In this document: one piece after another, positions 3,059-62,097 of the stretch
How the letters are laid out: each line of letters starts with the position of its first letter
Position numbering within the stretch: position 1 is the stretch's first letter
Assembly (NCBI RefSeq): GCF_030684315.1
Contig: NC_081387.1
Coordinates: 21,756,647-21,820,646, forward strand
Source: Stegostoma tigrinum
Lineage: Eukaryota
Direction: 5' to 3'
Length of the DNA stretch: 64,000 bases
Notes under the pieces: model-generated
What the model was told of the DNA's origin: nothing
Database searches by the model: none
The model's input: only the letters and a program-made list of their open reading frames with translations
Made by a program: the position numbers and the translations under genes

Positions 3059-3121
3059 GTTGTTTTAGATCCTAACAAAGTTGTTTGTATTTCAGGGCCT
3101 GCACAGCCAGGCTTTGGAGAT

Positions 3122-3197
3122 ATGCAGAGAATGTTCAGATGGAAAGGGCTTCAGTGCCTGCTCTTGATTTTCCTCTGGAATCGCTGGACATTGGCAG
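3122..3197 (+). CDS. Gene A leader exon, signal peptide MQRMFRWKGLQCLLLIFLWNRWTLA
   Basis: Acceptor ttcag before 3096, donor G|gtgaga at 3197/3198; exon start is homologous to the gene B leader exon. A 5'UTR exon probably lies upstream of the window. Confidence 0.85.
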
Positions 3198-6100
3198 GTG
3201 AGAGACCTCACGGTTGAACTACCCCAACACCTCGCTTCGTGTCGATCTGTGCTGGAGGGTCATGATTGGGGAATCGAGTTAGAAGTTTCAGTGTGTCTTT
3301 GATAATAATGTAAGCACGGCCACAGAATCTGGCAACAGCTGCCCGGCAGAGAGCCAGCACTGTGTCAGTGGGCTGAACGACCTCCTTTTGTGCCTTGAGG
3401 ATTCTGTGTAACTTCCTGACCAACGATCGCATTTGATCCCATGATCAACTTGTGGAGGTGTTGCGGCTTACTTCAGTGGGCATCAGTGAAAGTTAAAACC
3501 ATTGCGTTCTCTTCTATCTGTTCCTTTGTTGTAACATTTAGCCCAAGCTTTCCCTCACCCTGGCTCTTTCTGCAAAACCTTGCACATACTTTGCTTTGCA
3601 TCAGCGTAACTTTTAAAATCCCCTCTTTATCCGATTCCCTTTTGACTCTTAGCAAGTCTGCTTCCACAGCAAGAGCTCTTTCAGTCTTATGGTAAATTGT
3701 TGATGTTGCTGATGAGGCTGGCCTTTGTTATATCTTTAACGTATTAAACCCCAAAGTGCTTTGTAGAAGTATTGTAAATTGCAGAACGGCACCAAGCTAC
3801 ATAGGGACATTAGGTCAGATGACCAAAAACGTGATTATAGAGGTCAGTACAGAAGTGCGTTTTAACAGCGGAAAGCAAGGTAGCCCAAGCAGGGATGATG
3901 TTTTATTTTAAAATTCCACAGCTTAGGGCTGAGGTAACAGTGGCACTAATGGTGGAACAATTCTCATTGGGAGTGCACAAGAAGTCAGAATGAGATGAAT
4001 GCAGTGATCTTTGGAGGGTTGTAGAAGATGTGGAGGAATTGGAAAGCACAAATTAGTTTTTTGAGATCTAGGCGTTACTTTACCTAGAGTTACTCAACGT
4101 AGGTCATTGAACACAGTGGGGTGATGGGAGCAGAACGTGGTGTGAGGGTCAGATGCAGGCACCAGAGCTTTAGATAGCCACAAATTTATGGAAGAGACAA
4201 GTGTGTCAAAGAACTCGGGTTGAAAAGTTAATGGAGGAGGGTTTCAGTAGTGGACAAGCTGATTTGAGGGTGAAATTGAGCAGTGTTATGGAAGTAGGAA
4301 TTGCTGATCTTGTCAAAGGTGTTAATATGGTGCCAGAAGTTCAAGTCTGAGGTTCAGTTTGACACACAGTTCAGAAGTAGGCTGTCTTAAACCTCTGAAT
4401 GTTGTTAAGGAGAGGACTGAAGTCAGTAACAGTGCATTCCAGGTCACAACAACCCACATGTCTTTTTGTTTAAAGGAAATACTTTCGAGGTTTAAATTCA
4501 GAGAGGTTGAAATCTCTCAAACACATAAAGGGATAGACAATCTTAATATAGGAAAGGTGTTTGCCCTAGTTGGGAAGTCTAGAACCAGGTGGCACTGTTT
4601 TATAAATAAAGTAAATTTATGCTTTTGGGATGGAAGTGAGGAGAGTATTGCTTTTAACTTGAAGGGTGGTGAATCTCTGGAATCCTCTACCACTAAGGGC
4701 TGTGGGAGCCCAGTCTTTGAATATGTTTAAGATTGAGATTGACAGATTGCTGTTTACTGATAGTGTAAAGAGTGGAGAATGAAATGTTAGATCAGCTATT
4801 GTGTTAAATGGTGGAGCAGATGCTATGGTTTCATGGCCTGCTCCTGTTCCTAAATTGTTTCTGGGTTATTTTGTCAGTTCTCTTCAACCTGAAGCTGTTG
4901 TGAGTTGGAGTCTCGCTCTGCCAGTGGATACGGTTTCTCCTTATTGACTTTCTCAAAGCATTTGATATCTCCATTGTATCTCCCCTTTTTGCCTTCTTGA
5001 CTGTACATGTCTAGATCTTAGCTGCTCCAGTGTTTCTGCTCAAATGAAGACCGTCATTTCTTACTATTGTGGTAAACTTTCCTTGAATGTCACATGCGTT
5101 GGTTAATGAATTGATATTATATACTTTATTTCTTGAAAATGCCTTGACTGTGCCCCCATGAAATTCCAGAAGAAGTTCCTCCACTGATTGTTTTTCGTCC
5201 TTTCTCTCCACATTCACTGAAGCATCCTTTCTTTCCTAGACAATTTCCAAATCTCCTGCACCCAATACCCAGTTGTGGTCGAGGTTGGCGCTACAGCAGT
5301 GTTGGAATGTCAGCTGATCCCCAGATTGTCCCTCAAAGGTTTGGAGATCCGCTGGAGCAAGGACAATGCACTGGTACATCTCTACAGATTTGGACAGGAT
5401 GAGAACGCGGGGCAGGATGCTCGTTACAAGGATAGGACCCAGCTGTTTGCCAGTGAATTTCAGAATGGCAATGTCTCCCTGAAACTCATGCAAGTCACGT
5501 TGCTGGACAATGGGAAGTACAAGTGTTTTGTGGAATTAGAAGCTCATGGGTTCAGAGATGCAGAGGTTATCCTGAATGTGGCGAGTAAGTACCTTTCGTG
5601 GCATTTGCTTCTAATCCAGCCTGTAAAATTCTAACAGGAATAGACAGGGTTAACACAGGAAGAATGTTCCCGATAACCAGGGAGTTCACAGCTTAAAGAT
5701 AAGGGTAAGCTTTTTAACACTGAGATGAGGAGAAGTTTCCTCACCCAAACAATGCTGAACTAGTGGAATTCTCTATTACAGAAAGTGGTTGAGGCCAAAA
5801 CATTGGGTGTTTTCAAGAAGGAATTAGATATAGTTCTTGGGGCTAAAGGGACCTAAGGGTATGGGAGGAGAAAAACATGAACAGAGGACTGAGTTGGATG
5901 ATTAGCCATGATCATATTGAATGATGGAGCAGGCTCAAAGGGCTTACTCCTGTCCCTAATTTCTGAGTTTCTGTTGTTTCACAGGATCAGTGGTTGGGCA
6001 AGCCATCCCCAGGAGAAGGTGGTTGGTAAGCTGCCTTCCTGAACCAGGGAAGGCCTTTGGGTGTAGCAAAGCCCACATTGATGCTGGGGTGGGGGTCGGG

Positions 6101-9100
6101 GGTGGGGCTTCAGGAATTTGACCCAGTGACAGTCAAGAGGTGGTGATATATTCCCAAGCCAGGATGTTGTGCCTTGGCAGGGAGCTTGCAGGTGGTGGTG
6201 TTCCCATTCGCCTGCTGCCCCTGCCCTCCCAGGACATAGAGATCATGCTTGGGAAGGTGCTGTTGGAAGTGCCATACGTTACTGCAGTGTATCTTGGAGA
6301 TGGTAAGCATTGCTACTCCTGTGCGTGAGTGGGAGAGGGAGTGATTTTCGAAGTTGTTTGATGGGGTGCCAATTGGCTGGGCTGCTTTGTCTTGGATGTT
6401 ATTAACATTATAGGAGGCTTTCGCTCATCCGAGCAAATAGTGAGTATTCCATCACTTTCCCTTGATTTGTAGATGGTGGACAGACTCTGGAGAGTCAGGA
6501 GCTCTACACAGGTTCCACACAAATTGCCAGTTTTTGTACTTGGTGCCTCTGTTTATGAACATCAAGATCCCATGTACTTGGATGATTAACTCTCTCAAAC
6601 AATATTCCCTCTACTTTTGCTGATGGCAGGAGGAGGCTGGTGTGGGGTGTAAGTGCCAGCATGGAGCTGTTGGATGAGTGTCCTGTGTCTGTCATAAAAT
6701 CCCTACAGAGTGGCAGCAGGCCATTCATCCCATCGAGTCCACACTGACCCTCCTGAAGGGAACCCCACCCAGATCCCTGCCAGTCTTTGTAACCCTGTAT
6801 TTCCCATGGGTAATCTATCTAACCTGCACATTCCTGGATACCATGGGCCAATTTAGAATGGCCAATTCACCTAACCTGCACATCTTTGCAGGAGTTTTAT
6901 TCTGTATTTCAATCCCTTGTTGTCCCTGTGCCAGGAGTGTTTGATGAGGACAGTGTCAAGAGAACCTTACTTTGAGCTTTAAAAAGAAAGGGGGAGTTTT
7001 CTCCACCATGATATTCACCCCATGCTGTCACTGTGTCCCGGGAGATTTGACAGTGACAGTGTTGCAGGGACATCTTTTCTATTTATGAGTTGAGATCACC
7101 ACTCATAATGGTCATGCAAAAAATACAGACCCAGCCTGCTTAACTTCTCCTCACAAACCAATTCTGGGAATCAGCTTCATGCACCTTTCCTTGACCTACA
7201 TCCAATGCAAGTATATTCACCTTCAAGCACGGAACCAAAATTGAACACAATAGACTGGTCTCACCAATACCCAGTGCCATGGTAACAAATCAGGGGGTGG
7301 GATTTGAACCCATGGACTTCAGACTCAAAGATGGAGGGTGATACCTGCGGAGTAGGGCTGGCTGCCTTTGTGATCCTCTCTCCTGTAACCCGGTTGTGTT
7401 TTTTAAAAGAACTGAGCCTAATTGCATTGGCAGGATTTGGAGAATGGCCTTTGATCAACTTGAACAAGTACACGGGGAATGGAATCCAGCTCCAGTGTGA
7501 ATCTGAGAACTGGTTTCCTCCACCGACGGTGCAATGGAGCAACGAGAAAGGTGTCATCCAGACTCAGCAGGGTCAGCCGGTACCAAAGGAGCTGCGCTCA
7601 GTCAACGTGAAGAGCTACATTGATGTGACTAGTGATTCCGGGAACACCTTTAACTGTTTGCTAAAAAGCGAGATGCTGAACAAGACAGTCAGTGCAGAGT
7701 TCTATGTCCCAGGTTAGTGAGCTTTGTGTCTCTATGTGCCTGTGTGTATACCCATTTACCGTTGTTGGTGTCACCTCTAGCCAATATCCGATTGTGACGT
7801 GCTGATCTAAAGAACATTTGCCATCCTTTAACTCAAAAGAATGGGATGATGCAACTGTCATTTATCTCAGTCCCTAGCTGTTGTGAACATTGATTTAATT
7901 TATTATTGTCACATGGTACCGAGGTACAGTGAAAAGTATTGTTTTGCGCTAACCAGACAAATCGTACCTCGTGTAAGTATATCAGGGTATTGGGACAGAA
8001 TGCAGAATATAGTGTTACAGCTACGAAGAAGGTGCATAGAAAGATCAGCTCTAATGTGAAAGAATTGTTTATAAGTCTAACTATAATGGGGGAGAAGCTG
8101 TTCTTGAATCTGTTAATATGCATTTTCAGACATTGTATGATCTGCCCAATGGAAGAGAGTATAACGGGGTAGGAGAGGTCTTTGATGTTGCCCGCTTTTC
8201 TGTGACAGCAGGCAGTGTAGACGGAGTCAGTGGAAGGAATGCTGGTTTTCATGACAGACAGGGCTGCGTTCCCAGCTCTCCTTAACTTCAAGTTCTTCAA
8301 TTCCTCCATGTCCTTTCCTGCTGCTACAACCCAGCCACCATGTTTGCAATGCTTAGTGACTACATTCTTCTCCAGTGACTTGTCGCCTGGGTTGTGATCA
8401 ACTTGATGGGCCCCATCAATGGCCACATCAACAGCCCCTTGCCCTACTGAGACCTTCCTCCAGCCTGCATGACCTCTGCGTGCTGTGAACCTTTCTACCT
8501 TTTCTAACCCTCTGCTCTACTTTAATTCTGTCCCCTTGTGCTACCTTCGCTTTTCATCACACTCCCATCTCTGATGTGTCTTCAGTTGCTTGTGGTCCAG
8601 ACCCCCTCTAAATATTGCTAGCCCTCTGCCCCACATTCCTTTTTCTTAACTTAAGATGTTTCTCAAAACCTTAGTGTCTGAGCAAGCTTTTGGACGTCAG
8701 CTGTATTATCTCCTTACATTACTGGGTGGCTGTTCTGCTCTGAAGCATGCTGGGCTGATTTACTATATAACAGGTACTATACAAATGCAGAAACTCACTG
8801 TGGGTCCACAGCCAACACTGAGGGCCATTCGTTGCTCCGATAAGCCCGTTTACTCGAAGGGTGATGGATTTGGAGGGTAAGATGAAAAACAAGTTCAGGG
8901 CTGGAGTGCCTGACTTTGATTTATTATTTTAGCAATAATTTCATTCTGCATTTTTTATTCTCCAGATGAATTCCACCCCAAGACATCCGTTTGGCTTTAT
9001 ATCTTCCTCTTGATTTTCTTTGGCATCCTTGGTCTCATCATTGGCCTCTTTCTGTTCTTCAGGAAACAAAAGAGACACATCCGAGGTATGAACTTTTTAT

Positions 9101-12100
9101 CGCGCCATGGGTACACGATTGGCAACTGTTTTTTGATTCAAACACAGTTAGGTTGTGTGATGATGTCCCAGAACCACAGGTTGCACCCGCCCTCCAACCC
9201 AAATCCCACAGTGAATGGTAAGGGCAGCACGTCCTTAGGAATGTCACCACCTGCCAGACCCCCTCCAAGCCGCTCACCGACCTGACTTGGAAATGTGTCG
9301 CCATTCATTCAGTGTTGCTGGGTCAAAATCTGGGACCTCCCTCTTTAACAGCACTGTGGATGTCCCCAGACCCCAAGGACTGCGGTTGTTCAACAAGACA
9401 GCACGCCATCACCTTTTTCCAGAGCAGATAATCAACTGTCTCCCTTTTACTTCCTCTACCCCGAATCAGCCTCCACGTCCTTGTGCAGCCTGAGGCTTGA
9501 GGGAGTGACTGGGGGAGTTCATCAGTGATACCTTGATGCTGAATATCTGTCAGGCCATTGATAATCCGCACTCACAAAAATTGATGACTCTCTCTCGCTC
9601 TTTTTTTTCCAGATCTAAAGAAGCGGCCAACAACAACTGGTGAGAGAAAAACAAAGACTTGTATTTTAGTATTGCTGTTCACAACTTTGGAGAGCCAGGC
9701 TGTGTCCCCCTCGAACCTCCCACCCCGCACCATGTGTGTCCTTTCTCCTGCCTCTGGGACTGAGCGGGGCAGTGGGTCAGACACTGCCCTTTTCCCATCC
9801 CCACCCACTCTGGGACTAGGTGAGACAATGGGTCACTGACTCCTCACCCCACCATCACCACCTGGGACTGAGTGGGAAACTGGTTTACGGGGCAGCAAGG
9901 GCCATTTGGCCCATTGTGCTTATGCTTGCTGGCCAAAGGAGCAGTTGACTTTTTGCCTTTCTCCTGCCTTCTCCTTGTGACCCTTGTACTCTGTTCACCT
10001 TCAGACAACTGTCTGAATTAAATCTGCCTTCTCTGTGCTATCAGCACAATCCAGACCTTGACCATTCCTGTGTGAAAACAGTTTTCCTCACGACTTTGAC
10101 AAATTGCTTTAGGCCTGCTCCCTCTTAATCTTAACGCCTTTGTGACTGAGAATATTTGGAGCCTTTCCCTTAAGCTTATGCAGTTTTTGCAATGCTTTCA
10201 CATCCTTCCTAAAGTGCGGTGTCCAGATCTAGGTCCTGGACTGTAGCTATGGCTGGCCTAGTGTCTTACAGCACCATCTCCTTGCTGTCGTACACTGTCT
10301 CAGTCAAATGCTGTGTTTTCAACCTGGGGTTATATCTCGATAGTCGGACTGAGATAGAGGGAGCTTCCCAGTGGGACTAACAAAAGTTAGGCCTGCAAAG
10401 GATGTTCAACAGGAGCCATTCCAGAAAATATTGTGTTTGTCAGAATTAAAGGCACTTGAATGAGGATCGGAAGGCTTTGTTTCCTGGTGAATTCCCTTCT
10501 TTTAGTGACTTGTGCTGTTTTTTGTATTTTAGATTATTCCTGGAAGAAGTCCAACAATGGTAAGTAAACATTCCCAAATATCCTGAAAGCATCACCGTGA
10601 ATTTTCTGACCTTGTAATAAGTGAGGCAGATGATGAGAGAGAACAGACCAGTCCCAGGGGCATGAGGCTGAGCAGAGTGGGTGAATTTTAATGGAACTGT
10701 CCCAGCAGAAATCTCATTGTGACAGAATTATTATTTTTAAACCACCTTGCCAAATTAAATCAATTAAAACTCTAGCTGTTGTCTTTTTTGCCCTTTGTGT
10801 TGAAGATTGATAGAACTGCATAGAAGGATGAGGGTGAGGTCTCTGAAGAGGAGCCACTGGACCCAAAACATTAATTCTGCTTTCTCTCTAAAGTTGCCGC
10901 CAAGTTTCTTTCAGCAATTTATGCTTTTATTTTGACAATCCGCAGTGCATGGCTATATTTTTGGGTTAGGATTGTTGGGGGAAGAATTGTGTGAAACACA
11001 GCCCGTGGAATGCTGATCAAAATAGAGACGCGGCAGTGGTTCTGGGGCGGGCTTACCCAGTGACGCCCAGAGGGGTTAATGGGCCAAATGGATATGAACT
11101 GGTAACTGTGAAGAAGGTGTCACCTAGAAGTGCGATGGGGATTGGGATGGCTCTCTCCTCTCCTGTAGGGTCCTTCTCGCGAGATCCTCAGGCTTAAATC
11201 TTCAAGAAGTTCCTAACTCTCCTCAACACGTTTCAAAAGTACATAATTCAAATGATAGAAATGGTTTCTGCTGTTTTTTAAAAAGTTTTTTTCTTTTCTT
11301 TTCAGTGGAACTCAGACAAGTAATGGGTAAGAGCTCAGTTGATAGGATTATAAATAAATCTGGAAGGGAGGGTTTGTCATTCTCTGTTGTGATCAGTACA
11401 ATCGATGGATATTTCCCCAATCCCCCTCAGTAGCGGTCAGGATAGAGCCTGTTCAACTATCTGAATGTACGGTCAAGCTTGTTTCAGCAGAGAGCACTAT
11501 CTGGTATCTGCAATATCCACTCCCTCAACTTTCCGTCCCTATGATCTCTGCTTCTGACTTTAGCATAGGATCTTGTTCCTATGCCTGGGACCACAGCAGC
11601 ACCTCAGTGTGGAATGTCAGCTGTGACTCGAGTGTAGCACTCCGAGTCCAAAAGGTTCCATTCCAGCCCTAACATAAAGGGTAAAAATATAAGTTAACTC
11701 TCCTGGTGCAGTACCAAGGTGGTTCTGCACTGCCACGGGCACACCTTTCTCTTGAGATGTTGAACTGAGGTCTGTCGGTGGATGTAAAAGATCACAAGAC
11801 ATCACGCTCTTTGGGAGATGAGCTGGAAGGTTTTCCCTGTGTCCTGCAAAATATTGATTCACACCGATTACTGTGACGTAAACCTGTTTCCTGCAGCAAT
11901 GCCTGCACCTCAAAAGCTACATCATTGGCTGTGAACAACCTGATGTCAACGTATTTTGAGTTCCCACATGCTCGCTGTGCCTTTGCGCCTTGTGGACAAT
12001 GCCAGCTGACCTACTCTGAATTACCATCACATGATCATTGTGTGCCCTGTCCTGCTGCACCATTAAGTTGGTGATGCTGCAATAAATGGGCAATAAATGG

Positions 12101-15100
12101 ATCTTACAGGAAGAAAGGTTTTTGCCCTGCAGTTGTCTGTTTGAGCGTGTTCAGTCAGCGCACTCTATAAAGCGCGGTGTAGTACAGATATCTGTGACTC
12201 CGACACCATGAGTAATTTTGTTGCTTCTTCCTTCCTGTGCAGATAGTCTCTGGGAACAACTAGGTAAGAGGCTACCAGTGAGGTGATGTGTTTCGGGTGA
12301 TAATTTGAAACAAGATCCTGTATTCCCTCTCAGGGATGTATGATATCCTGTGGCCGCTATGCTAAAGAAGAGCAAGGTGGTTCGGCCTGGTGTGGGCAAA
12401 GCTTATCCCTCAATCACCATTGATTTTAAAACTGATTCGTTTATCACTGACTTCAATCTGGAGACACAAGTAATAGTCTGGGAACCCAAGAGCAAATCCT
12501 GCCACGGCAAATAGTTGAATTTGAATTCAATAAAAATCTAGAAATAGTGGTAACTATGAAACTATTATCAATTGTTGGGAAAAGACCCATCTGGTTCACT
12601 GATGCCTTTTCGGGAAGGAAACTGCCACCCTTATCCAATCTGGCCTACATGTGACTTCAGACCCACAGCATCATGGTTGACACTTTATATCTGCCCTGTG
12701 GGCCATTAGGGTATGGGCAATAAACGCTGGTTTGGACGGCAACGCTGTCATCCTGTGGGTGACACAGTGTCTCAGTGGTCAGCACTGCTGCCTCACAGGG
12801 CCTGGGTTTGACCCCACCCTTGGGCGACTGTCTGGCTGCACATTCTCCCCACATCTGCATGGGTTTCAACTGGATGCTCTGGTTTCCTCCTGCAGTCCAG
12901 AGGTGTGCAAGTTAGTTGGATTGGCCATTCTAACTTACCCGGAGTCTCCAAGGATGTGTCAGTTATGTGCGTTAGCCATGGGAAATGCAGGGTTACAGGA
13001 ATAGAGGGATGGGTCTGGGTGTGATGCCTGACAGACAGTTGGTGTGTACTCATTGGACTGAATGGCCAGTTTCCACACTGTAGAGAGTCTATGGAAGACA
13101 GTTGGTCTGTAATGATAGCCTCCCACTAGCAAGGATATTTCTGTCTCCAGGGCCACCAAACATGCCTTTCAATTGAAATGGATGGAAGCTGAAGCAAATG
13201 GAGAGTTCAAGATAATAAAATGTGAGGCTGGATGAACACAGCAGGCCAAGCAGCATCTCAGGAGCACAAAAGCTCTCTCTGATGAAGGGTCTAGGCCCAA
13301 AACGTCAGCTTTTGTGCTCCTGAGATACTGCTTGGCCTGCTGTGTTCATCCAGCCTCACATTTTATTATCTTGGATTCTCCAGCATCTGCAGTTCCCATT
13401 ATCGCAAATGGAGAGTTGATGTGTTTGGCAAGATCTGGACGAAAGGGAAACAGTTCCAGAATTTTAAAACAAATGACACGTTGACACAAATTACCAATGC
13501 CGGCCAAACATCTTCCTGGTCCATGCTGGTTTTTATGCACCACACAAACTGCTCACCTTGCAGTCTGCTGTGCCACCACCCACCCACCCACCCACCCCTA
13601 TCAATGGACTAACACTTCCCTACCTCAACCATGCCATGTGTCAGTGATTCTTACCATGTGACTGCTTTCTGGGCAAAAGAACTTCTCCAGAATTCTTCAC
13701 TTGAATAACTTATGACTTTTTTTTAATTCCCCCCCCTCCTTTCCATCCGTGTTCTGGACTTGTGTAGGAACAGGAGGCCATTCAGCCCTTCCAGCCTACC
13801 GTACCAGTTACTGAGATGACAACTGATCTGTAGCTCCACGTCCCCTGATACTTCCTGTCTGATTCGAGTTGCACTATCTCACTCTTTCCCACCTTTGGAA
13901 AACAACTTTCCCATGCCCTCTCAAAGGTTAACCTTAATTTGAAATTCCTCCATCAGCTCAGGTGTTTTCAGAGTTCCTATCATTTTTGATCTGCTCTGAT
14001 AAGAGGTGAATGGACCAGCATCAATGGTTAAAGGATGTAACTTGGGAATAGAGATTTCCCACCATGTTTCTGTAACGGATTAAAGTCATTTCAGTTGTAC
14101 AACCCTGTGGGTCCACAGTTATACAAACGATGTTTTCTCAGATTTTGTGCTGAATGGTAAAAACATATTCAATGTAAATCTGCTCAATTCTTAGTCAGTG
14201 AAGAGCTTTATACTGCTAACTAATGTTCTTTTCCTTTTTAGGTAAAATTCGCCCTCTCCCTCAACTAGGTAAGGCATGGAGTAACTTTTCATCGTTATTA
14301 AGATGTGCGCATCACTGGTTGGGCCAAAATTTATTCCCCATCACTAATTTCCCTTGAAGGTAGTGATGAGTTGTAGTCCTGTAGGACTTAGAGACGTCTA
14401 AGAGAGCTGATGGGTGGGGTGTTGGGACTTGCAGGATTTAGACCCAGTGATGCTGAAAGAATACTGATTATATTCCCAAGTTAGAATGGTGTGTGGCTTG
14501 GAGGGAAATGTACAGGGGGTGGTATCTCAGGCACCTGCTGCCCTCGTTCTCTGGACGGCAGTGGTGCCTGGTTTGGGAGGACCTATCAAAGATCGTGTTA
14601 GGGGTGAATCTCACCTCTGTTCACCGCCACTAAACTCAGAGCTCACAGAGTCCACAACTAACCTCTGTCTGATACCCTGCCTCATCCTTTAAATATTCAG
14701 TCAGCTCGCCAAGACGTCTAAGCAGGCTCTGTTTTAGACACCTTTCTGAAAACTGCACAAATGTACAATGAATTATTTGGAGGTGATTTAATCCCAGTCT
14801 CCTTGTCCTTTTCAGCAATTCAGAGAATGACTGATGCTGCAGGTAAGAACTGTGCCTCCTCAATAACTCCATGTTGAATGGTGTTTCAGGCAGGGTAGAA
14901 GTGAGGACTACAATGAGGGAGTGAAGTGGGGAGGAGTGAATTGTTTATGTGGTGGTGAAGAAGTCGTTTCATGTGTGCATGAGTGTGGAGGTGAAGGTGT
15001 CAGTCCAAATGAATTGTGTGTAATTTGTATCTTGTTTTTGGCCTCCTCCAGTGCTGAGAGATCCTATTCAGCCCATTGAATTTGTGTTTGCATTTTGGAA

Positions 15101-17749
15101 GAGCTATTCAGTTGTTCCTCCTCCCTGCTGTTTTCCCCAAAAGCTACACATTTCCCCTTTAAGTATTTATCCAGTTCCCTTGCTTGATTGTTGTCTAGGG
15201 AAAAAAAATCTGTATCCTGTTTTTTTTTAACCTATTTATTAGCAATCTGTGTCATCAGATTACCGACCCTCCTGCCACTGACAACTGAGAAAATGAGCAT
15301 CTATTCAAACTCCTGAATGGATCGATCAAATCTCCTCCTCATAGAATTAATGAGAGGATGATGTGGCAGAGGTCTTGCTCCCCTGTTAAATTTAATATTT
15401 AGTCATTGTTACTCTCCCTAAGGACATATTGCATTCAATATCCACAAGTCCTCATTGTAAAAGTTTACTTATTCACAGAATTTGTTGGCACAGAAAGAGG
15501 CCACTCAGTGCAACTAGGTTTGAGCTGGCATTCGTGTTCCATGTGCTCCCCCCCCCCAAAAAAAAATAATAAAGTAAGGTGGTATGGGATTCAGGGGAAT
15601 TTGGCTGTCTGGATACAAAACTGACTGTACAATAGAAGACAGAGGGTGGTAATAGATGATTCAGCCTGGAGCTCAGTGACCAGTGGTGTTCTGCAGGGAT
15701 CTGTTCTGGGACCTCTGCTCTTTGTGATCTTTATATAATGAAGTGGAAGGGTGGGTTAGTAAGTTTGCTGATGATACAAGGGTTGGTGGAGTTGTGGACC
15801 GTGTGGAGGGCTATTGTAGGTTGCAACAGGATATTGACAGGATGAAGAGCTGGGCAAAGAAGTGGCAGAAGGAATTCAACCCAGAAAAGTGTGAAGTGAT
15901 TCATTTTGGAAGGTCGAATTTGAATGCAGAATACAGGGTTAATTGAAGGATTCTTGGCAGTGTGGAGGGATCTTGGGGTCCACGTCCATAGATCCCTCAA
16001 AGTTGCTACCTAAGTTGATTGGGCTGTAAAGCAGGCTTATAGTGTGTTGGCTTTCATTGGCAGGAGAATTGAGTTTAAGAGCTGAGAGGTTATACTGTAG
16101 GTCTATAAAACCCTGATTAGATCACACTTGGAGTACTGTGCTTGGTTCTGGTTGCCGCATGAGAGGGTAGTTGTGGAAACTTTAGAGAGGCTGCAGAGGA
16201 GATTTACCAGGATGTGGCCTGGACTGGAGGGCAGGTCTTATGAGGAAAGGTTGAGGAAGCTATGGCTTTTTTCATTGGAGCGAAGAAGGATGAGATAGAA
16301 GTGTACAAGATGATGAGAGGCATAGATAGAGTTTTTTAGCCAGAGACATTTGCCCAGGGTGGAAATGACTATTATGAGGAGGCATAATTTTAAGGTGATT
16401 GGAGGAAGGTATGGGGAAATGTCAGATGTAGGTTCTTTACACAGAGAGTGGTGGACATGTGGAATGCGCTGCTGATCGTGGTAGTGGAGTCAGATACTGC
16501 AGAGACATTTAAGTGACTCTTGGATAGGCACATGGATGATAATAAAATGTAGGGTATGCAGGGTAATTTGATCTTAGTTGGATAATAATTTGACACAGCA
16601 TCGTAGGCTGAAGGGCCTGTACTGTGCTGTGCTGTACTGTTCCTTATCTCTATGTTTTGTTCTAGAATGGGGAACCTGCTAAGGAGAGCAGTTTCACCTA
16701 AATTCACCATTGGTAACTGTCTTTTGTTTATAGACCCTGGTTCTCCTCCCCTCTCTGGATCACTAATGTTCTTACAGCAAAGGTAACTGCTGTCCTCATC
16801 TGGTCTCGTCTAAATGTAACTCCAGACTCACTGCTGTGGATGACTGTCAGGGTAAATTAGGGATGGCCTAGCCAGTGATACCCACAATGTGAATGAAATT
16901 TAAAAAAATTAGGAGCCGCAGCCTATCGAGTGGATTAACAAGGAAGTTAAGGATAGCAGGTTAGGACAGAAGCTGAATAAATGATAATAAGAGCAAAAAG
17001 TAGGAGAGAATGGGTGACTGTGCTAATAGCAACCCATGTCATAACAGGACCTGGTGAGGGGTTGGTGAAAAACATGGAAGGACGGAATCAGGCTCTCGAG
17101 TTATTGCCGTGTCCAAGAGACTGCAGGGTCCCCAAGCAGAAATTGAGAAGTGTTTCTTTAAGCTTCTGCTAAACCTATCTCTTGCTCTTCCAACCTTTTT
17201 TGTTTTGTAGACTGCATTGAACTGGACTGTGACACTGCGAATCCAAACCTCCTGATATCCTCCGATCTGACCACCATGAGCTGCACTGCAGAAGGGAAGT
17301 TTCTTGCTGACAGCAGTGCGAGATTCGAGCACAGATTGGTCACGTTGGGAAAGACTGGATTCACCAGTGGCAGGCACTATTGGCTGGTGGAAGTGGACAT
17401 GCACTCCGTCTGGGACCTGGGAGTAGCCAGGGAGTCGGTAAGCAGGGAAGGAAATCTACCTTTGATCCCTGAAAATGGATACTGGACTATTCGGCACGAT
17501 GGGAAGAAATACTGGGCCAACCTCACCAGCCCTTTGGAAATCATGTGCAAGGAAAAACTCCAGAGAATTGGAATATATGTCAACTACAATGCTGGACAGG
17601 TCCTGTTCTGTGATGGCGCTACCTACTCACACCTCCACAGTTTCACTTCCAGCTTTGAGGGGATGATCTACCCCTTCTTCAGTCTCTCGGGGTCTGGCAA
17701 ATGTTCCATTTTGCCATCAATCACCCCACTTTCCAATTGGAATCACTGA
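3122..17749 (+). CDS. Butyrophilin-like gene A (SP-IgV-IgC-TM-juxtamembrane micro-exons-B30.2), about 502 aa
   Basis: join(3122-3197,5240-5584,7434-7712,8966-9085,9613-9639,10533-10559,11306-11326,12243-12263,14242-14268,14816-14842,17211-17749) = 1509 nt, open frame, all introns GT-AG phase 1. Confidence 0.9.
5240..5584 (+). CDS. Gene A IgV exon
   Basis: DNFQISCTQYPVVVEVGATAVLECQL..EIRWSK..VHLY..YKDRTQLF..GNVSLKL..DNGKYKCFV; B7/BTN-type V domain; cctag acceptor, A|gtaagt donor. Confidence 0.95.
6700..6890 (-). mobile_element. HE1-like SINE 3' fragment
   Basis: Matches the SINE copies at 22550-22880 and 12760-13095 (aggccattca..gagtccacactgaccctc..ggccaattcacctaacctgcacatctttg). Confidence 0.65.
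7434..7712 (+). CDS. Gene A IgC (CD80-like C2) exon
   Basis: FGEWPLI..GIQLQCESENWFPPPTVQW..FNCLLKS..EFYVP; ggcag acceptor, G|gttagt donor. Confidence 0.92.
8966..9085 (+). CDS. Gene A transmembrane exon
   Basis: DEFHPKTSVWLYIFLLIFFGILGLIIGLFLFFRKQKRHIR; 120 nt, same length as in gene B. Confidence 0.92.
9613..9639 (+). CDS. Gene A micro-exon 1 (27 nt, DLKKRPTTT)
   Basis: Polypyrimidine-ccag acceptor, G|gtgaga donor; paralogous to ELNERPTIK of gene B. Confidence 0.85.
10533..10559 (+). CDS. Gene A micro-exon 2 (27 nt, DYSWKKSNN)
   Basis: ttttag acceptor, G|gtaagt donor. Confidence 0.8.
10843..10960 (+). mobile_element. Degraded PLE 3'-end fragment (family 2) with mutated hammerhead core
   Basis: CTGAAGAGGAGCCACTGGACCCAAAACATTAA followed by a tail resembling 57859-57975 and 39272-39400. 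Confidence 0.55.
11306..11326 (+). CDS. Gene A micro-exon 3 (21 nt, VELRQVM)
   Basis: Long T tract with ttcag acceptor, G|gtaaga donor. Confidence 0.8.
12243..12263 (+). CDS. Gene A micro-exon 4 (21 nt, DSLWEQL)
   Basis: tgcag acceptor, G|gtaaga donor. Confidence 0.8.
   Translation: MVSGNN
12760..13095 (+). mobile_element. tRNA-derived HE1-like SINE
   Basis: tRNA-like head (..ctcagtggtcagcactgctgcctcacag..gggtttgac), central core, CR1-like tail ending ttccacactgtag. Confidence 0.75.
13208..13403 (+). mobile_element. Hairpin PLE 3'-end insertion (family 1) with hammerhead core in the loop; 14-bp TSD
   Basis: Inverted arms 13208-13274 and 13307-13373 (one mismatch); TSD GCAAATGGAGAGTT at 13194-13207 and 13404-13417; core CTGATGA at 13279, GAAA mutated to AAAA. 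Confidence 0.9.
14242..14268 (+). CDS. Gene A micro-exon 5 (27 nt, GKIRPLPQL)
   Basis: tttttag acceptor, G|gtaagg donor. Confidence 0.8.
   Translation, partial: VKFALSLN
14816..14842 (+). CDS. Gene A micro-exon 6 (27 nt, AIQRMTDAA)
   Basis: tttcag acceptor, G|gtaaga donor; paralogous to AAERVIAAA of gene B. Confidence 0.85.
15575..16650 (+). mobile_element. 5'-truncated CR1 LINE (RT C-terminal part and 3' end)
   Basis: VLQGSVLGPLLF, SKFADDTRVGG, FNPEKCEVIHFG motifs; ends in (ctgtg/ctgta)n tail. Confidence 0.9.
17211..17749 (+). CDS. Gene A B30.2 (PRY-SPRY) terminal exon
   Basis: IELDCDTANPNLLIS..RF..GFTSGRHYWLVEV..WDLGVA..PENGYWTI..IGIYVNYNAGQVLF..IYPFF; tgtag acceptor; TGA at 17747-17749. 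Confidence 0.95.
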
Positions 17750-19205: not shown

Positions 19206-19232
19206 GGAACATTCCCAGAGCAGTCCAGCATT

Positions 19233-32594: not shown

Positions 32595-32652
32595 ATGGAG
32601 CATGGGGCCCTGTGTCTGATTCTCCTCCTGAGGATCCATTCTGCACTGGCAG
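32595..32652 (+). CDS. Gene B leader exon, signal peptide MEHGALCLILLLRIHSALA
   Basis: Acceptor ttttcag before 32548, donor G|gtaaga. Confidence 0.85.
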
Positions 32653-44600: not shown

Positions 44601-47600
44601 AATTGAGATTGATAGATTTTGACCCCAAACCTGGGAACAATCTGTCTTAGTAGATGGTGGCTTGTGGTTAATAGCCTACCTCTAGTTGGTGAGTACAAAG
44701 CATCCTGCTTCCCCCTGCCCCAGGCCTAGGCAGAGCTCTGATCCAGATAATAGGTGAGGTCCAGACAGGGATCTGACCCAGATACTGTGTGAAGTTCTGG
44801 CAGAGATCTGATTCATGCCCTAGGCCAGGTCCAGGCAGAAATCTGATCTAGATCCAAAGCCAGTCACAATGAAAGATCTGTGTGTCTCCCTGGACACTGA
44901 AAGCCTGTCCTGATCCAGTTTCTGTCAGTTTATAATTCCAAGCATGAATACTGTTTCGCTACTATCACTAAGTTGTTTTTTTGTTTGCTTTGTTTTCTCA
45001 CAGAGAGTGCGACTGCTAACTTAGGTAAGTTACTCTCAATCCAATGTGAGGGATGCTTCTCTCTCTCATTCTGATTCTCACTGTGGCTGAAGCCGGGCAC
45101 GTTCCTCCACCTTAAGCTGCAATTTAAATACATATTGGTGTTCTCTTTCTTTTGTCTCTGTCTTTCTTGAGTTGGACATGGAATTGGAAAATAAAAGCTG
45201 AGAGGATAAACCCAATAACCGAGGCTGAACAGAAATACTGAGGACGGGACTTCCAGATTGAAGTTATTAAAACTTTGAAAGGAGCATTCATACAATGCAC
45301 ATGGAAAAGATGTTTCTAATGCTGGAGGAAATCATTGAGATTGACCTCCTGGAGTGAATGGCCTATATCTGTCCAGTAGACCTGTAGCATTTATTTAGAA
45401 ACAAAGGAAGTAGGAGTAGGCCACTCCGCCCTTCGAGCTTGCCCTGATCATGATTGTCTTCCTCAGAAGGTGGTGGAAGCAGAGTGTTTGCATACTATAA
45501 ATGCCATGATGTGGAGGTGCCAGTGATGATCTGGAATGAACAAAGTCAGAAGTCACAGGACATCAGGTTACTGTCTAACAGGTTTATTTGAAAATACTAG
45601 CTTCTAGAATGCTGCTGCTTCATCAGGACTTCACTTGACAAAGAAACATCGCACCAAAATCTTGTGGCTTCAAATAAACCTGTTGGGCTATAAACTGCTG
45701 TTGTGAGACTTCTGACTTTGAATATTATTAATGCAGATGTTGCTAGATACTTGCTGAGAAAGGGGTGAAAGGCTATCAGAAAGGGTAGGAGGAAATGTGG
45801 ATGAATCAAATCAGCCATTGAATGTGCAGAGCAGACTCGAGGGGCTGAGTGGCCTGCTCCCTGTCCTGAGGCGTAGGTTTGTGACCTAGTGTGTTTCTCC
45901 CTTTATTCTACCTCTCTCCCACTGCCTCCTCTTGTCTGCCTCTCACTCGATCTATCACTGTGTGTCTCTGGCACTCTCGCTCGCTTCCTGTCACACTGTT
46001 TCTGTTGTTGTCTGTTTACTGAGGAATGTGGTGGGATGTTATTGGAATAGTGTGGCCTTGAAGTAACATAGGAATGGATGAGAGTTTCAGTGATGGATGA
46101 ACTGAGGCTGGACAAAGTTGGACAGCGTTGGGAGGGTGAATAAGTGGACTTGACTTTTCTGACTGGATGAGTTTGTGGTGGGATTGGTGGTCTTGTTCTG
46201 ATTGAGTAGAGCGTTGATCATGCCACAGGGAGGTAATGTTTTATTAACGAAGATATCTTTGCTTCATTACAGACCTGGAGAAGAGGCTGTGTCAAACAGG
46301 TAAGGTCTCAATGGGCTGATGCAGCACTGGTCAAATTCTCGGTGTTTCTCGATCTCAGACCTCCACAGTTTGCTCCCATCTGAACCTGACTCCCTCACCT
46401 TTCACAAAAAGGCTAGATAGCCTGTTGGCTTGCCCCACTGTCCTATCAACAATTGGAGATTTGACAGATGCCAGCATCAATGGGCTGAATGACATCTGTC
46501 TACACTGTAAAGATTCAGTGATAGTGTTGATTGATGGGATGGAGTGGAGCTGTGGATTATTAGTCAGGCTGCATGCCTTTGATGTGTTACTGACCCTCGT
46601 ACATGAACCTGGACAGGAGGTCATCACACCTCACCCTGACAGCTAAAAGGTACAGATCAGAAAAGCCCATTGACCCAACAAAGCCCGCCCCTTGAGAAGA
46701 CCTCAACTGTTTCCCATCAGTGACATCTCTGCTGTGGGAAAATTAAAATCCTTCCTCGATTTTTGTGGAAAGATTGTAACTGTTTCTATGTTTCCAGAAC
46801 ATTGTGCACTTAATGTTGGAGCATACAACAGTACAGCCCAGGAACAGGTCCTTCGTCCCACCGTGTCTGTTCCGTCCATGATGGTATTCTAAGCTAGTCC
46901 CATCTGCCTGTATGTGGTCCATAGCTCGTCTATTTCTTGCCTGTTTGTGTGTCTGTCTAAATGCCTCTTAAACATTTCTATCATCTCTGCCTTTAGGATG
47001 TCCCCTGACACAGCATTCCAGGCACTTACCACCCTCTACGTAAACAAAAAAACTTGCTTTACACATCTCCTTTAAATGTTTGCCCTTTCACCTTAAATCG
47101 ATGCCCCTTGTATTTGACATTTCCACCTTGGGACTATCCATGCCCCACAAAATTTTATAACTTCTATCAGTTTGCCTGTCATCTCTGAAGCTCCTTGGAA
47201 ACAATCCAAGTTTGTCCAATCTCTCCTTATAGCTAATGTGCTCCAATCCAGGCAATGACCTAGTAAACCTCTTTTGCATTCTCTCCAATGCCTCCACACC
47301 CTCCCAATAGTGTAGTGATCAGAACTACACACAGTACTCCAAATGTGACCTAAAATGAACAGCTGCACCATGACTTGCCAACTTTTATACTCAGTGCACC
47401 AGCTGATGAAGACAAGCATGCTGTATGCCTCCTTTATTATCTTATCCATTTGTGTTACGACTTTCAGGGAGCTTTGGACTTCCACACCAGGATCCGTCTT
47501 TAATCAATGATCCTCTGAGTCCTGCCATTTACTTTATACCTTCCTGTTACAATTGACCTCTCAGTGCAACACCTCACACTTGTCCAGATTAAAATCCATC

Positions 47601-50363
47601 TGCGATTTCTCCACTCAACTTTCCAAATGGTAACTCTATTCATTGACCATTTTCTCCAGAACTCCCACCAATTTTCACGTTATCTGCAAATGTACTAATC
47701 AGACCACCTACATTTTCATCCAAATAATTTATATATACTACAAACAACTGAGGTCCCAGCACTGATCCTTGTGGAACACTACTGATCACTGTTCTCCAAT
47801 CAGTAAAATACCCCCCCCCCCCCCACAACTACTCTCTGTCTTCCAAGATCAAAGCCAATTTTGTATCCGACTTACCAACTCACCCTAGATCCCATGTGCC
47901 TTAATCTTCTGGTCCAGCCTATCATGAAGACCTTGTAAAATGCTTTGGTAAAGTGCATGTAGACAACATCCACTGCCCACCCCCCTCAATTATCATTGCC
48001 ACCTCCTCAAAAAATTCAAATTTGTGAGACAAGATCTCCCTTGAATTAAGCCATGATGACTATCCTGAAAAAGTCAATTTTTCTCCAGACACGAGTGAAT
48101 CCTGCCCCTAAGAACTTTCTCCAATAATTTCCCTATCACTGATAAAAAACTCACCAGCCTATAGTTTCCTGCATTATCCCTGTTGCATTTCTTAAACAAT
48201 GAAAGAATCTTAGCTATTATCCAGTTGTCTGGGACCCTGCCTGTGGCTAAAGAGGGTACAAACATCTCTGTCAAGGTCCTATCAAACTCCTCCATTGCCC
48301 CCTTCAGTGTCCCAGATCCCGTCAGACCCTGGGAACTTATCTGCCCTAATGTTTTACCAACACCAGCTTTTTCAAATTGACAAGCCCCAGAATATCAACG
48401 TACCCCCCTCTCATCTTACCATGATCCATGTCCCTCTACTTGGTGAATGCTGGTGGAAAGTATGCATTGAGGAACAACCCCACTTCCTGTGGCTCCACAC
48501 ACAAATTCCTACCTTTGTCCTTGAGTGGACCTACCCTTTCCTGAGCTACCCCTTGCTCCTAATATATGTATAAAATGCCTTGGGATTCTCCCTAATCGTA
48601 CAAGCCAAGGACACCTCATGGTGCCTTCTGTCCTTACTAATTTTGTGTTTAAGTTCTTTTCAGCCTGCTTTGTACTTTGCAAGACCTCAAGTGATGCTGA
48701 CAGCTGCTGAATGCATGTGTAGGGGGGTGGCGGCAGGGTTGTAGGTAGTGGTTATTTGTCCCAGAATGAGTCAAGCTGTGTTGGTGGTGCATGAGTGGGG
48801 TGCTGCTGCTGGTGCTGGTGGTTGTGGTTGAAGAAAATGTTCAACGATCCTTTAACTTCAATTCTCTGTGTTTTCAGCTGCCGAAAGGGTCATCGCTGCT
48901 GCAGGTGAGGAGGGGTTTTCTGGTCACTTTGACACGCTCTTCCCCCATTTCCTGGGAATCACGCTGGGAGTTCTGTTCCACTCCCTTCAGGTTTAAGACA
49001 ACCAGAACTCTGTCTTTGATGGGGAGTTAAACTATGAAGGTCATCCTTTGAGAAGTGCAGTTTAAGGTCGCAGAGCGTCATGTAAAGAGCAGGAGAATTC
49101 TCCAGCCAATCATTCATCCCTCGACGCATTAAAACCTGGCACAGTCTCCTCAGGTGCTGGTCAAGTTTGTACACACCCTGTCTCTATGGCCCTGATCATG
49201 CACATTAACTGTTGAACTGATTTTTGGTACTTTTAAAAAAAAAAAAAAAGTTGCTTCTATTGTAACTCCCTCAATAACGTGTTCTGGGGGAAGAGTTCCA
49301 GATCTTCACTCTCCTTTGTGTGAAAAATTGCCTCCTGTTGTAGCCCGAACAGCCTTGTTTAGGATTTGAGATTCTGTCCTTCTGTACCCTGCCCCCAACA
49401 CAACCAGACGGAATTGCTTCTCCCTCTCTCCCTCCGATCAAATCCTTTAACTATATTAAATATGTCAGTTGGAACATTCCTTCAGTTTCTATATTTATGA
49501 TATATAAGACCAGATCTATTTAATCTTGTTCACTACTTCAGTTGTATTTTGGTGGAACTGTGATGCATCCACCCCAAGGCGACCAAAGCCTCTTTCTGTA
49601 TTGGTGCCCAGAACTGTGTGGTATATGGGACTTGATAGAATCTCAATCCATTTCAACATCCTTTTCTACCGTAGGGAAAAGGCAATGGACTGATGGGGTA
49701 ACTCTACCAAAGAGCCGTTACACTCACCATAGGCTGAATGGCCCCCTCCTATGCTGTGGTTCTTTACACGTTCTCCAGTTGCACACTCACACCAGTGATT
49801 TCTGGAGAATGCTGAAAGTTGACCTGTGACTTCCTTTTGTGTTGACAGTACCTGTGACCTATGACCCAGAGACCGCCAACCCCTACCTGATAATCTCAGA
49901 GGACCAGCTGACCGTGACATTCAGTGAAAATTGGCAGGACCTTCCGGAAAGCCCAAAGAGGTTCATCTCCCAGCTCTTTGTGACTGCAAAAGAAGGGTAC
50001 AAGAGTGGGAGCCAATACTGGGAGGTGCTGGTGGGCAACAAGCCTGACTGGGATCTGGGAGTGGTCAAGGGATCCGTCTCCAGGAAAGACTGGATCACAC
50101 TGAGCCCGGAGAACGGGTATTGGACCATCGGGAAGCGGGGTGATGCCTACGAGACCCATGAAGCGGAGCCTGTAAAACTTGAGTACAGGAGGATTGCTTC
50201 GAAAATTGGCATCTACCTGAACTACAAGGAGGGGACAGTTCATTTCTATGATGCTGACTGCATGGTGCAAATCTGCAGCTTCACAGCAGAATTCACAGAG
50301 GAAATCTACCCATTCTTCAGCCCCTGGGGATCCCAACAGGGGATGACAATCTGCCCCCTTTAA
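32595..50363 (+). CDS. Butyrophilin-like gene B (SP-IgV-IgC-TM-juxtamembrane micro-exons-B30.2), about 493 aa
   Basis: join(32595-32652,35435-35788,38338-38622,39864-39983,40765-40791,42842-42868,44489-44509,45004-45024,46273-46299,48878-48904,49849-50363) = 1482 nt, open frame, all introns GT-AG phase 1. Confidence 0.9.
35435..35788 (+). CDS. Gene B IgV exon
   Basis: DVFRVTGPEAPVIATVGGVAVLECQL..MEIQW..YHGRTEF..GNISLRL..DEGDYLCMV; A|gtaagt donor. Confidence 0.95.
36711..38215 (-). mobile_element. 5'-truncated CR1 LINE (RT domain to 3' end) in gene B intron
   Basis: SQHGF..RSCL, VDVVYMDFSKAFDKVSH, LYKTLVRPH..YCVQFW motifs; same family as 15575-16650. Confidence 0.92.
38338..38622 (+). CDS. 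Gene B IgC exon
   Basis: LGQRPVIRLDGYQKDGIGLQCASSSWYPLPVMHWED..DGLYRVSSSI..FRCLV..LRIP. Confidence 0.93.
39864..39983 (+). CDS. Gene B transmembrane exon
   Basis: DEFFPRMSRFFTAFILFLILLFGLLAAAGYYQYKQQKHIK; 120 nt. Confidence 0.92.
40067..40160 (-). mobile_element. PLE family 1 3'-end fragment in gene B intron
   Basis: Matches arms at 13208 and 56896; includes an intact hammerhead core. Confidence 0.85.
40131..40158 (-). ncRNA. Minimal type I hammerhead ribozyme core (PLE-associated)
   Basis: Minus strand CUGAUGA-A-GGGU-CCAG-GCCC-GAAAC-GUC; helix I is weak, so monomeric activity is uncertain. Confidence 0.65.
40765..40791 (+). CDS. Gene B micro-exon 1 (27 nt, ELNERPTIK)
   Basis: tttcag acceptor, G|gtatgt donor. 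Confidence 0.85.
42842..42868 (+). CDS. Gene B micro-exon 2 (27 nt, EYVELCNQS)
   Basis: ttgcag acceptor, A|gtaaga donor. Confidence 0.8.
44489..44509 (+). CDS. Gene B micro-exon 3 (21 nt, NDLENNI)
   Basis: tttttcag acceptor, G|gtgagt donor. Confidence 0.8.
44725..44885. repeat. Degenerate about 36-40 bp minisatellite between micro-exons 3 and 4 of gene B
   Basis: Recurring (ggtcca)ggcagagatctgatccagat-like unit, about 4-5 copies. Confidence 0.6.
45004..45024 (+). CDS. Gene B micro-exon 4 (21 nt, ESATANL)
   Basis: Long T tract with cacag acceptor, G|gtaagt donor. Confidence 0.8.
   Translation, partial: RVRLLT
45520..45720. mobile_element. Old hairpin element, probable PLE 3' end (family 3)
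   Basis: aaagtcagaagtc..aacaggtttatttgaa inverted against ttcaaataaacctgtt..gacttctgacttt; minus-strand CTGATGAAGCAGC remnant near the loop. Confidence 0.65.
46273..46299 (+). CDS. Gene B micro-exon 5 (27 nt, DLEKRLCQT)
   Basis: ttacag acceptor, G|gtaagg donor. Confidence 0.8.
46820..48690 (-). mobile_element. CR1 LINE fragment (RT) in gene B intron
   Basis: GRVPDNWIIAKILSLFKK..NYRLVS, SVPQGSVLGPQLF..STFADNVKIGG motifs. Confidence 0.9.
48878..48904 (+). CDS. Gene B micro-exon 6 (27 nt, AAERVIAAA)
   Basis: ttttcag acceptor, G|gtgagg donor. Confidence 0.85.
49849..50363 (+). CDS. Gene B B30.2 (PRY-SPRY) terminal exon
   Basis: VPVTYDPETANPYLIISED..DLPESPKRF..GSQYWEV..WDLGV..SPENGYW..KIGIYLNYKEGTVHFY..IYPFFSP..TICPL*. 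Confidence 0.95.
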
Positions 50364-61449: not shown

Positions 61450-61652
61450 TCTTTTCTCTGTTTCTCCTTTGTGTGTCTCTCTATCCCTCATTTTATTTCT
61501 GTCCTTTTCAGTTTCTGCCCCCTTTAGCACCTCTGTCTCTTCCTCTCTGTCTTTATGTCTCTCCATCCCTCCCTCTATATCTCCATCCCTCTTTGAACCT
61601 GTCTCTCCTTCTGTCTCTATCCCTCTCTGTCCCTCTGCCTCTCCTTCTTTCT
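61450..61652. repeat. CT-rich low-complexity tract
   Basis: (ctct/gtct)n-like polypyrimidine run upstream of the gene C IgV exon. Confidence 0.8.
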
Positions 61653-61728
61653 TTGTTACAAACAATAATACAGTGTATACAGCAGTAATAACCTGAATGA
61701 TGACTAATGGATCTGATTCTCTCTCTAG

Positions 61729-62097
61729 TGGCTATTACAGCGGCAGATTTAGAGGTGACGGGACCATTAGTTCCCATCTTGGGGGTTGTTGGGGACAGCG
61801 TGGTCCTGGACTGTCTGTTGGTCATGAAAAAACCCCTGGAGAACATGGAAGTCCGCTGGATCAACACAGCATATGGCTATAGCTCGCCTGTCCATACATA
61901 CAGGGCGGGAGAGGACGATTTGACACTCCAGCCCTTGGTCTACAGAGGCCGGACCGAACTGTTTCTCGACAAAGTGGCACAGGGGAATCTCTCTCTCTGG
62001 CTCAAGGATGTCCGAGTCTCTGACAGGGGACAGTACAAGTGCTTTGTGACATCTGCCATCAAACACAATGAGTTCAAACTCACGCTGGATGTGACAG
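61729..62097 (+). CDS. Gene C IgV exon, butyrophilin/B7-type; rest of the gene lies beyond the window
   Basis: DLEVTGPLVPILGVVGDSVVLDCLL..MEVRW..PVHTYRAGED..YRGRTELF..GNLSLWL..SDRGQYKCFV; donor G|gtcagt; three in-frame acceptors (61729, 61741, 61747). Confidence 0.9.

Follow-up and report, generated by a model that had tools for sequence, protein, structure and literature searches.

We analysed a 64,000-nucleotide (nt) stretch of the Stegostoma tigrinum genome (G000:C44:21756647-21820646, here called the window), which carries two neighbouring butyrophilin genes, A and B. Both are intact butyrophilins of ordinary architecture, with IgV, IgC, transmembrane (TM) and B30.2 domains. On the evidence of the trees, A and B are sister paralogs, each present in single copy and each with one-to-one orthologs in both sharks and rays; their duplication predates the shark-ray split and is separate from the BTN2/BTN3 split. 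We tentatively propose, at somewhat less than an even chance, that these sister butyrophilins act together as a cell-surface dimer through juxtamembrane coils of equal length.

The spliced coding sequences, assembled by script, encode 502 amino acids (aa) in gene A and 493 aa in gene B (start-to-stop 3122-17749 and 32595-50363), and the two proteins are 36% identical over 484 aligned residues. Each gene has 11 coding exons with no internal stop and one terminal stop, and all introns have AG/GT ends and are in phase 1. The common exon plan consists of a signal exon, IgV, IgC, a 120-nt TM exon, six mini-exons and a B30.2 exon. The mini-exons, located by a splice-site scan between the TM and B30.2 exons, have the same sizes in both genes (27-27-21-21-27-27 nt). 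The features of A and B are as follows.

Gene A
3096..3197 (+): signal-peptide exon; acceptor at 3096, ATG at 3122; joint to IgV in the X1, X3 and X8 contigs
5240..5584 (+): IgV exon; splicing, PDB matches, 100% identity to P0001
7434..7712 (+): IgC exon; relatives' contigs, splicing
8966..9085 (+): transmembrane exon, 120 nt; relatives' contigs, splicing
9613..14842 (+): six juxtamembrane mini-exons, 150 nt in total; scan, contig gap of the predicted length, same residues in P0001
9613-9639, 10533-10559, 11306-11326, 12243-12263, 14242-14268, 14816-14842 (+): the same mini-exons singly
17211..17749 (+): B30.2 (PRY-SPRY) exon to the stop; 3' untranslated region (UTR) reaching at least 18587

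Gene B
32595..32652 (+): signal-peptide exon, coding part; exon start by 32548
35435..35788 (+): IgV exon; contigs, splicing, PDB matches
38338..38622 (+): IgC exon; contigs, splicing
39864..39983 (+): transmembrane exon, 120 nt; contigs, splicing
40765..48904 (+): six juxtamembrane mini-exons, 150 nt in total; scan, with the first and last seen as joints and the total length matched in three contigs
40765-40791, 42842-42868, 44489-44509, 45004-45024, 46273-46299, 48878-48904 (+): the same mini-exons singly
49849..50363 (+): B30.2 exon to the stop; 3' UTR extending beyond 51200

Pfam found V-set, C2-set_3, PRY and SPRY twice each in the public protein P0001, which contains A 1-497 and all of B. 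The PDB matches of the two ectodomains were MOG, BTN1A1, BTN3A, BTNL2/3/8 and Skint1, and also CD276. Both genes thus combine a B7-type IgV and IgC ectodomain with a single TM segment, heptad mini-exons and a cytoplasmic B30.2 domain, one domain per phase-1 exon. The gene A IgV is 100% identical to P0001, a named Stegostoma tigrinum record. These results bear out the initial annotation, which had read from the letters two complete, frame-intact genes of equal exon count and phase with diverged proteins, from a probable cartilaginous fish.

Splicing was followed in contigs from relatives' runs, about 93-95% alike to Stegostoma; the RNA label of these runs is presumed, and introns are skipped in them. 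The A region (2000-18600) was compared with runs X4, X3, X1 and X8, and the B region (32300-51200) with X3, X1, X8 and X2. Spliced contigs were found for gene A in three of four runs (X1, X3 and X8, with A fragments only in X4) and for gene B likewise in three of four (X1, X2 and X3), the introns being skipped at GT..AG; such contigs indicate presence only. Both genes are spliced in X1 and X3, which come from two separate studies, and exon joins of the kind that the initial annotation called for are thus seen in presumed transcripts of relatives. The mini-exon span in the contigs matched the prediction exactly, at 150 nt (X1) and 152 nt (X8) for gene A and 271 nt (X1, X2 and X3) for gene B.

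Gene A contigs pass through the A stop into the 3' UTR, and gene B contigs begin with their own leader. The public model P0001 ('uncharacterized', 1188 aa) joins A (1-497) and B (696-1188). Because A contigs run past the stop and B has its own leader, this fused gene model is likely an annotation error, and a single 1188-aa A-B fusion protein (P0001, likewise P0002 and P0003) is ruled out. Neighbouring butyrophilins are fused in five public models (P0001, P0002, P0003, P0045 and P0230), which join A and B in three sharks, and B and a further gene, D, in two batoids.

We built an IgV tree (64 rows, 114 columns) and an unrooted ectodomain tree (50 rows, 212 columns, LG+G4). In the constraints below, each mammalian subfamily is represented by one member (bat BTN3, cat BTN2A2), and BTNL3/8, Btnl1/6, Skint and BG are outside the sampling of the trees. 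The IgV tree showed an A clade (99/98, 11 rows) and a B clade (100/99, 8 rows) as sisters (95/91), and the ectodomain tree gave the same grouping (A, 100/99, 9 rows; B, 100/99, 8 rows; A+B, 96/85). Each clade contains sharks and rays with a single Stegostoma member; other clades in the IgV tree include recent near-identical copies. No close paralog of A or B was found in the Stegostoma genome, where the best other B30.2 reached 46-47%. Ortholog models are full-length in 8 of 10 cases for A and 5 of 7 for B. No clear chimaera ortholog of either gene emerged from the trees, in which three Callorhinchus rows fall elsewhere. Since orthologs of each gene occur in both sharks and rays, the duplication would be older than their split, roughly 250-300 million years ago, in agreement with the earlier view of A and B as old paralogs that were both retained.

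In the ectodomain tree, 11 of the 12 tetrapod rows form one clade (100/99), with a crow row outside on a long branch, and the seven mammalian rows form a clade of their own (99/98). Forcing B with bat BTN3 (p = 4.2e-5) or A with cat BTN2A2 (p = 1.6e-5) was rejected by approximately unbiased (AU) tests, which rule out the candidate reading, hinted at by PDB ranks, that A is BTN2-like and B is BTN3-like. The initial annotation had suggested A and B as a basal form of the mammalian pairs, and this is not supported: they group as chondrichthyan sisters, and with orthology to BTN2 and BTN3 rejected, any pairing of A with B would be a parallel to the mammalian pairs and not their ancestor. Bearing on a possible single origin of the shark and tetrapod BTN ectodomain, apart from other B7 genes, shark BTNs group with a tortoise BTN in the IgV tree (84/87), on just 114 columns and with outgroup loci that carry no gene names.

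The juxtamembrane region is 50 residues long in both A and B. At one predicted d position of the heptad register, A has I308 in 10 of 10 orthologs, with R309 beside it in all ten, and B has E307 in 10 of 10; one heptad earlier, the predicted d position holds Leu, Phe, Tyr, His or Arg in A and Ala in nine of ten B orthologs. The net charge of the coil is 0 to +4 in all ten A orthologs and negative in eight of ten B orthologs. Charge differences in the juxtamembrane region steer BTN3A heterodimers (PMC10665462), and the A/B charge pattern resembles this rule. At predicted core positions that are occupied by bulky residues and Arg in A, the distal coil of B has small or acidic ones, so that pairing of B with itself would be poor and pairing with A more favourable. 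These core-residue differences fit a heterodimer and do not amount to a demonstration of one.

We compared the B30.2 domains with solved structures. The top match of B was BTN3A1 (E 3e-36), followed by pyrin (2e-35) at a margin of about two bits, and the best PDB match of A was pyrin. Three arginines, whose roles in the BTN3A1 pocket we take as given, align with E, V and S in B, and gene A has no Trp at the W391 column. The BTN3A1 pocket also includes W350, H351, Y352 and W391 (PMC7348870); B reads S, Q and L at the first three and, of this residue set and the basic pocket, keeps W391 alone. Position 351 is Arg in the seven other B orthologs. With these pocket residues missing, neither A nor B should sense phosphoantigen in the manner of BTN3A1.

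Across six matched species, 69 B30.2 columns are invariant in B versus 51 in A, and paralog-specific invariant columns, rare in the other 60 B30.2 exons of the genome, number 22 in B versus 8 in A. B30.2 identity is higher in B for 14 of 15 species pairs (mean 64% versus 55%), the pairs being non-independent and the Narcine A model being flagged as low quality. Several of the B-specific invariant residues lie at or beside pocket columns. The pattern suggests that the B30.2 domain of B has a fixed ligand of its own.

A and B are adjacent in at least four sharks: they are neighbours in the Stegostoma window, Hemiscyllium and Mustelus have models that fuse them, and their Chiloscyllium locus tags are consecutive. 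In the ray Narcine, an A model and a B+D model have consecutive accessions. Gene A is the first BTN gene after a TRIM array. Contig C44 has at least 26 BTN-like IgV, 26 IgC, 112 B30.2 and 66 RING matches, which are lower bounds, since one underlying scan scored 150 candidates out of 185 and the other 150 out of 389. For at least 22 of the 26 BTN-like IgV exons, an IgC exon and after it a B30.2 exon come within the next 70 kb, and among non-BTN B30.2 exons the nearest upstream feature is a RING in 16 of the 18 checked. The head-to-tail tandem cluster described in the initial annotation is real, and its scale of three genes is too small, since at least 20 such IgV-IgC-B30.2 units lie between 21.76 and 26.07 Mb. 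Synteny with the major histocompatibility complex (MHC), as suggested, is also found: none of the 36 MHC class I matches falls outside C44, where they span 1.1-11.1 Mb and lie about 10.6 Mb from the window. An MHC class II beta search, whose controls gave no signal either, found none.

Three other arrangements on C44 were observed. An X-type B30.2 exon is followed 14.3 kb on by a Y-type IgV exon in four repeats at 22.99-23.60 Mb, with identical or near-identical exons, which points either to recent duplication of a segment holding two genes or to duplication in the assembly. L100-L101 (22.125-22.14 Mb) is a further gene resembling C and D (described below), with IgV, IgC and TM exons and just a short B30.2-like remnant downstream. 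L053 (P0063, P0193) is a separate BTN at 12.5 Mb with a catshark B30.2 ortholog; the catshark ectodomain of this lineage groups with a chimaera gene (99/97), and it is possibly the oldest traceable chondrichthyan BTN lineage. Within the window, decayed retroelement-like fragments lie at 1-1850 and 27800-29300 (minus strand), 37000-38200 and 46900-48500, many of them at very high depth in the relatives' contigs. Pfam named one of six repeat-like open reading frames (RVT_1), and a 27-bp tandem repeat of 6 copies (822-985) lies inside the first fragment.

Downstream of B, the window contains the start of a third gene, C, as the initial annotation had noted, and its remaining exons lie past the window end.

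Gene C
61747..62097 (+): IgV exon
66525-66809, 67651-67770 and from 74857 (extended coordinates; L095-L096 span 66525-75407): IgC exon, TM exon and TRIM-type B30.2 exon, with five 27-nt mini-exons

The frame of gene C is open over about 479 aa. Signal-exon scans found no signal exon for C or D. Between about 56.4 kb and a point just beyond its last mini-exon (72.6 kb, extended coordinates), gene C aligns collinearly with gene D at 68-84% DNA identity, and its IgC is near-identical to that of D. Four exons at 21.93-22.10 Mb, three of them with an upstream RING, match the B30.2 exon of C at 80-83% identity. With a D-collinear body and a B30.2 matching exons of the TRIM cluster, gene C would be a duplicate of D with a TRIM-derived last exon, most likely a chimera of a D-like butyrophilin body and a B30.2 exon from neighbouring TRIMs. 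Gene D itself (L097, extended about 91843; C44 near 21.848 Mb) is interrupted in this assembly by a TGA in frame within the TM exon, reflecting a pseudogene, an allele or an assembly error; intact orthologs are present in rays and skates. The juxtamembrane coil of D is much longer than that of A and B, with at least 12 candidate mini-exons.

We further examined the B30.2 domains in two trees, a quick one of 139 rows and a careful one built from 63 of these rows. In both trees, the A, B and D domains form separate clades, each spanning sharks and rays, and many of the remaining BTN B30.2 domains of sharks and teleosts are nested among those of TRIMs. In the 63-row tree, grouping the C and D domains was rejected (p = 0.003). 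A single clade of the 43 BTN rows, set against 20 non-BTN rows, was also rejected (p = 3e-68), which does not support one origin for the butyrophilin B30.2 domains. A and B were not recovered as B30.2 sisters, and the constraint that joins them was not rejected either (p = 0.27). B30.2 exons taken from TRIM neighbours, as in gene C, would make B30.2 trees misleading on BTN ancestry, and we read the rejected single clade as later exon exchange with TRIMs, by which a separate Ig-B30.2 origin is not shown. The tree check of the Ig-B30.2 fusion proposed in the initial annotation thus reveals a B30.2 history mixed by exchange and neither proves nor excludes a single original fusion. In characiform fish, five proteins (P0035, P0036, P0038, P0041 and P0042) have BTN-like Ig domains with leucine-rich repeats (Pfam LRR accessions) in place of B30.2.

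Following the family pattern, A and B in the proposed A:B heteromer would both be membrane proteins of type I, with IgC and a parallel coiled coil as the means of dimerisation. The conserved B30.2 face of B would bind a fixed cytoplasmic ligand other than a BTN3A1-type phosphoantigen, the coil would relay this binding to the IgV domains, and IgV would engage a lymphocyte receptor, for which a gamma-delta T-cell receptor (TCR) is a candidate. Shark TRG and TRD loci are on record (PMC7348870), and in gamma-delta-regulating BTN heteromers the IgV CFG face binds germline V-gamma at complementarity-determining region 2 and hypervariable region 4 (CDR2/HV4; PMC11969061). Action of an A:B heteromer on gamma-delta TCRs nevertheless seems unlikely to us. 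The fuller version deserves similar reserve: an obligate shark and ray heterodimer of its own origin, pre-dating the shark-ray split, in which B senses a non-phosphoantigen cytoplasmic ligand, A supplies or co-supplies the gamma-delta TCR face and the cluster builds sensors from TRIM B30.2 exons as in C.

Several observations weigh against the A:B heteromer or its assigned role, including the limits of the B30.2 comparison given above. The heptad register was chosen by highest hydrophobicity (0.68) and is broken by prolines. A g-e' charge score preferred A:B to both homodimers in two of four species and was flat in Stegostoma, and a score that included same-position terms carried a bias against homodimers and, even in wrong registers, still leaned to A:B. 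The EWK/DWR motif just before B30.2 is common to BTN3A1, BTNL3/8 and Btnl1/6 (PMC5798315); aligned by exon position, its Trp is present in none of ten A and none of ten B orthologs, and EW is kept in C and ray D. The shared exon plan and adjacency are explicable by tandem duplication alone, gene B also adjoins D in rays (Narcine and Amblyraja models), and the cluster offers at least 20 further BTN units as candidate partners. The transcripts of A and B co-occur at library level only, which does not imply co-expression in the same cell. Low-sensitivity searches, too weak to call a loss, retrieved no skate A, while skate B orthologs were found (P0015, P0230 and P0231). Squamates without gamma-delta T cells retain butyrophilins (PMC12841164).

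It is also possible, with a lower probability, that A and B act separately, each as a homodimeric B7-like regulator with a ligand of its own; they would then be adjacent only because a slowly rearranging genome has kept the products of a tandem duplication together, and their coil differences would tune each homodimer. BTN2A1 is a homodimer (PMC11969061), the charge scores do not decide for A:B, and the B30.2 domains of A and B evolve at different rates; moreover, E307 of B is followed by Lys or Arg in nine of ten orthologs, which could neutralise the Glu in B:B. However, A and B have stayed single-copy and in register while their neighbours expanded and changed coil length (five mini-exons in C, at least 12 candidates in D), and paralog-specific invariant residues occupy the same predicted core position. 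The partner of A or B might instead come from elsewhere in the cluster, for example gene D or one of the expanded X/Y genes, in a heteromer or a higher complex like that of BTN2A1 homodimers with BTN3A heterodimers. The one-to-one ray orthologs of D (B30.2 100/100), its place downstream of B in the Narcine and Amblyraja models, the EW motif that D and C keep and A and B lack, and the four occurrences of the two-gene X-Y spacing of 14.3 kb speak for such a partner, but the coil of D is much longer, its TM exon carries the TGA whereas A and B are intact, and the X-Y repeat is possibly a plain segmental duplication; we regard this arrangement as improbable. Finally, A and B could form a pair whose role lies in epithelial or blood cells and does not involve lymphocytes, the B30.2 domain binding a cytoplasmic enzyme or cytoskeletal partner, as the B30.2 of BTN1A1 binds xanthine oxidoreductase. 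Single copy, strong B30.2 conservation and the absent phosphoantigen pocket would suit a fixed host partner, BTN1A1 acts in lipid secretion (PMC8664049), and the squamate butyrophilins are in keeping with such a role, but the B7-type ectodomains and the location among MHC-linked immune genes make it very improbable.

Butyrophilins occur in every jawed vertebrate tested, with class-specific duplications and with linkage to MHC class I in three cartilaginous fishes (PMC12841164), and Ig+SPRY is a gnathostome-specific domain pair in a survey whose chondrichthyan was the ghost shark (PMC11788884). The family at the base of jawed vertebrates, shark butyrophilins and MHC linkage are therefore already published in these reports, and A and B share with the butyrophilins described there the IgV-IgC-TM-heptads-B30.2 plan, MHC class I on the same chromosome and the class-specific duplications. 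Orthologs of A and B from many sharks and rays already carry a butyrophilin-like annotation, in NCBI models named 'butyrophilin subfamily 1 member A1-like'. The main text of PMC12841164 treats neither heterodimers, TRIMs nor a conserved A/B pair, and a literature search, with subscription papers mostly outside it, found no published conserved shark A/B pair, shark BTN heteromer or shark BTN-TRIM chimera. What is new here is the conserved single-copy, in-register A/B pair, the rejection of A and B as direct ancestors of the mammalian pairs, and gene C as a probable chimera.

The proposed A:B heteromer resembles BTN3A1/BTN3A2, BTNL3/BTNL8 and Btnl1/Btnl6 in its related paralogs, juxtamembrane coils, partner charge differences and possibly co-dependent exit from the endoplasmic reticulum. 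It differs from these mammalian heteromers in that A and B are not BTN3 orthologs, lack the EWK/DWR Trp and are only 36% identical. With the BTN3A1/BTN2A1 phosphoantigen sensor, B shares its top structure match and W391, but the pocket W350, H351 and Y352 and the arginines are replaced. Like other MHC-linked TRIM-B30.2 clusters, C44 combines many RING and B30.2 matches, and gene C provides a recent, mappable shark case of B30.2 shuffling.

Butyrophilin heteromers may be the ancestral gamma-delta T cell ligands, and mammalian pairs are the only ones tested. This locus offers a concrete pair in the oldest living jawed-vertebrate lineage, with two single-copy genes and specific coil residues, and the fused public gene models conceal this pair until they are split. 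The conserved B30.2 face of B points to an old ligand, and gene C shows a route by which butyrophilins may gain new cytoplasmic sensor domains from their TRIM neighbours. If A and B do pair, the heteromer logic would have arisen at least twice or would be a built-in property of the family.

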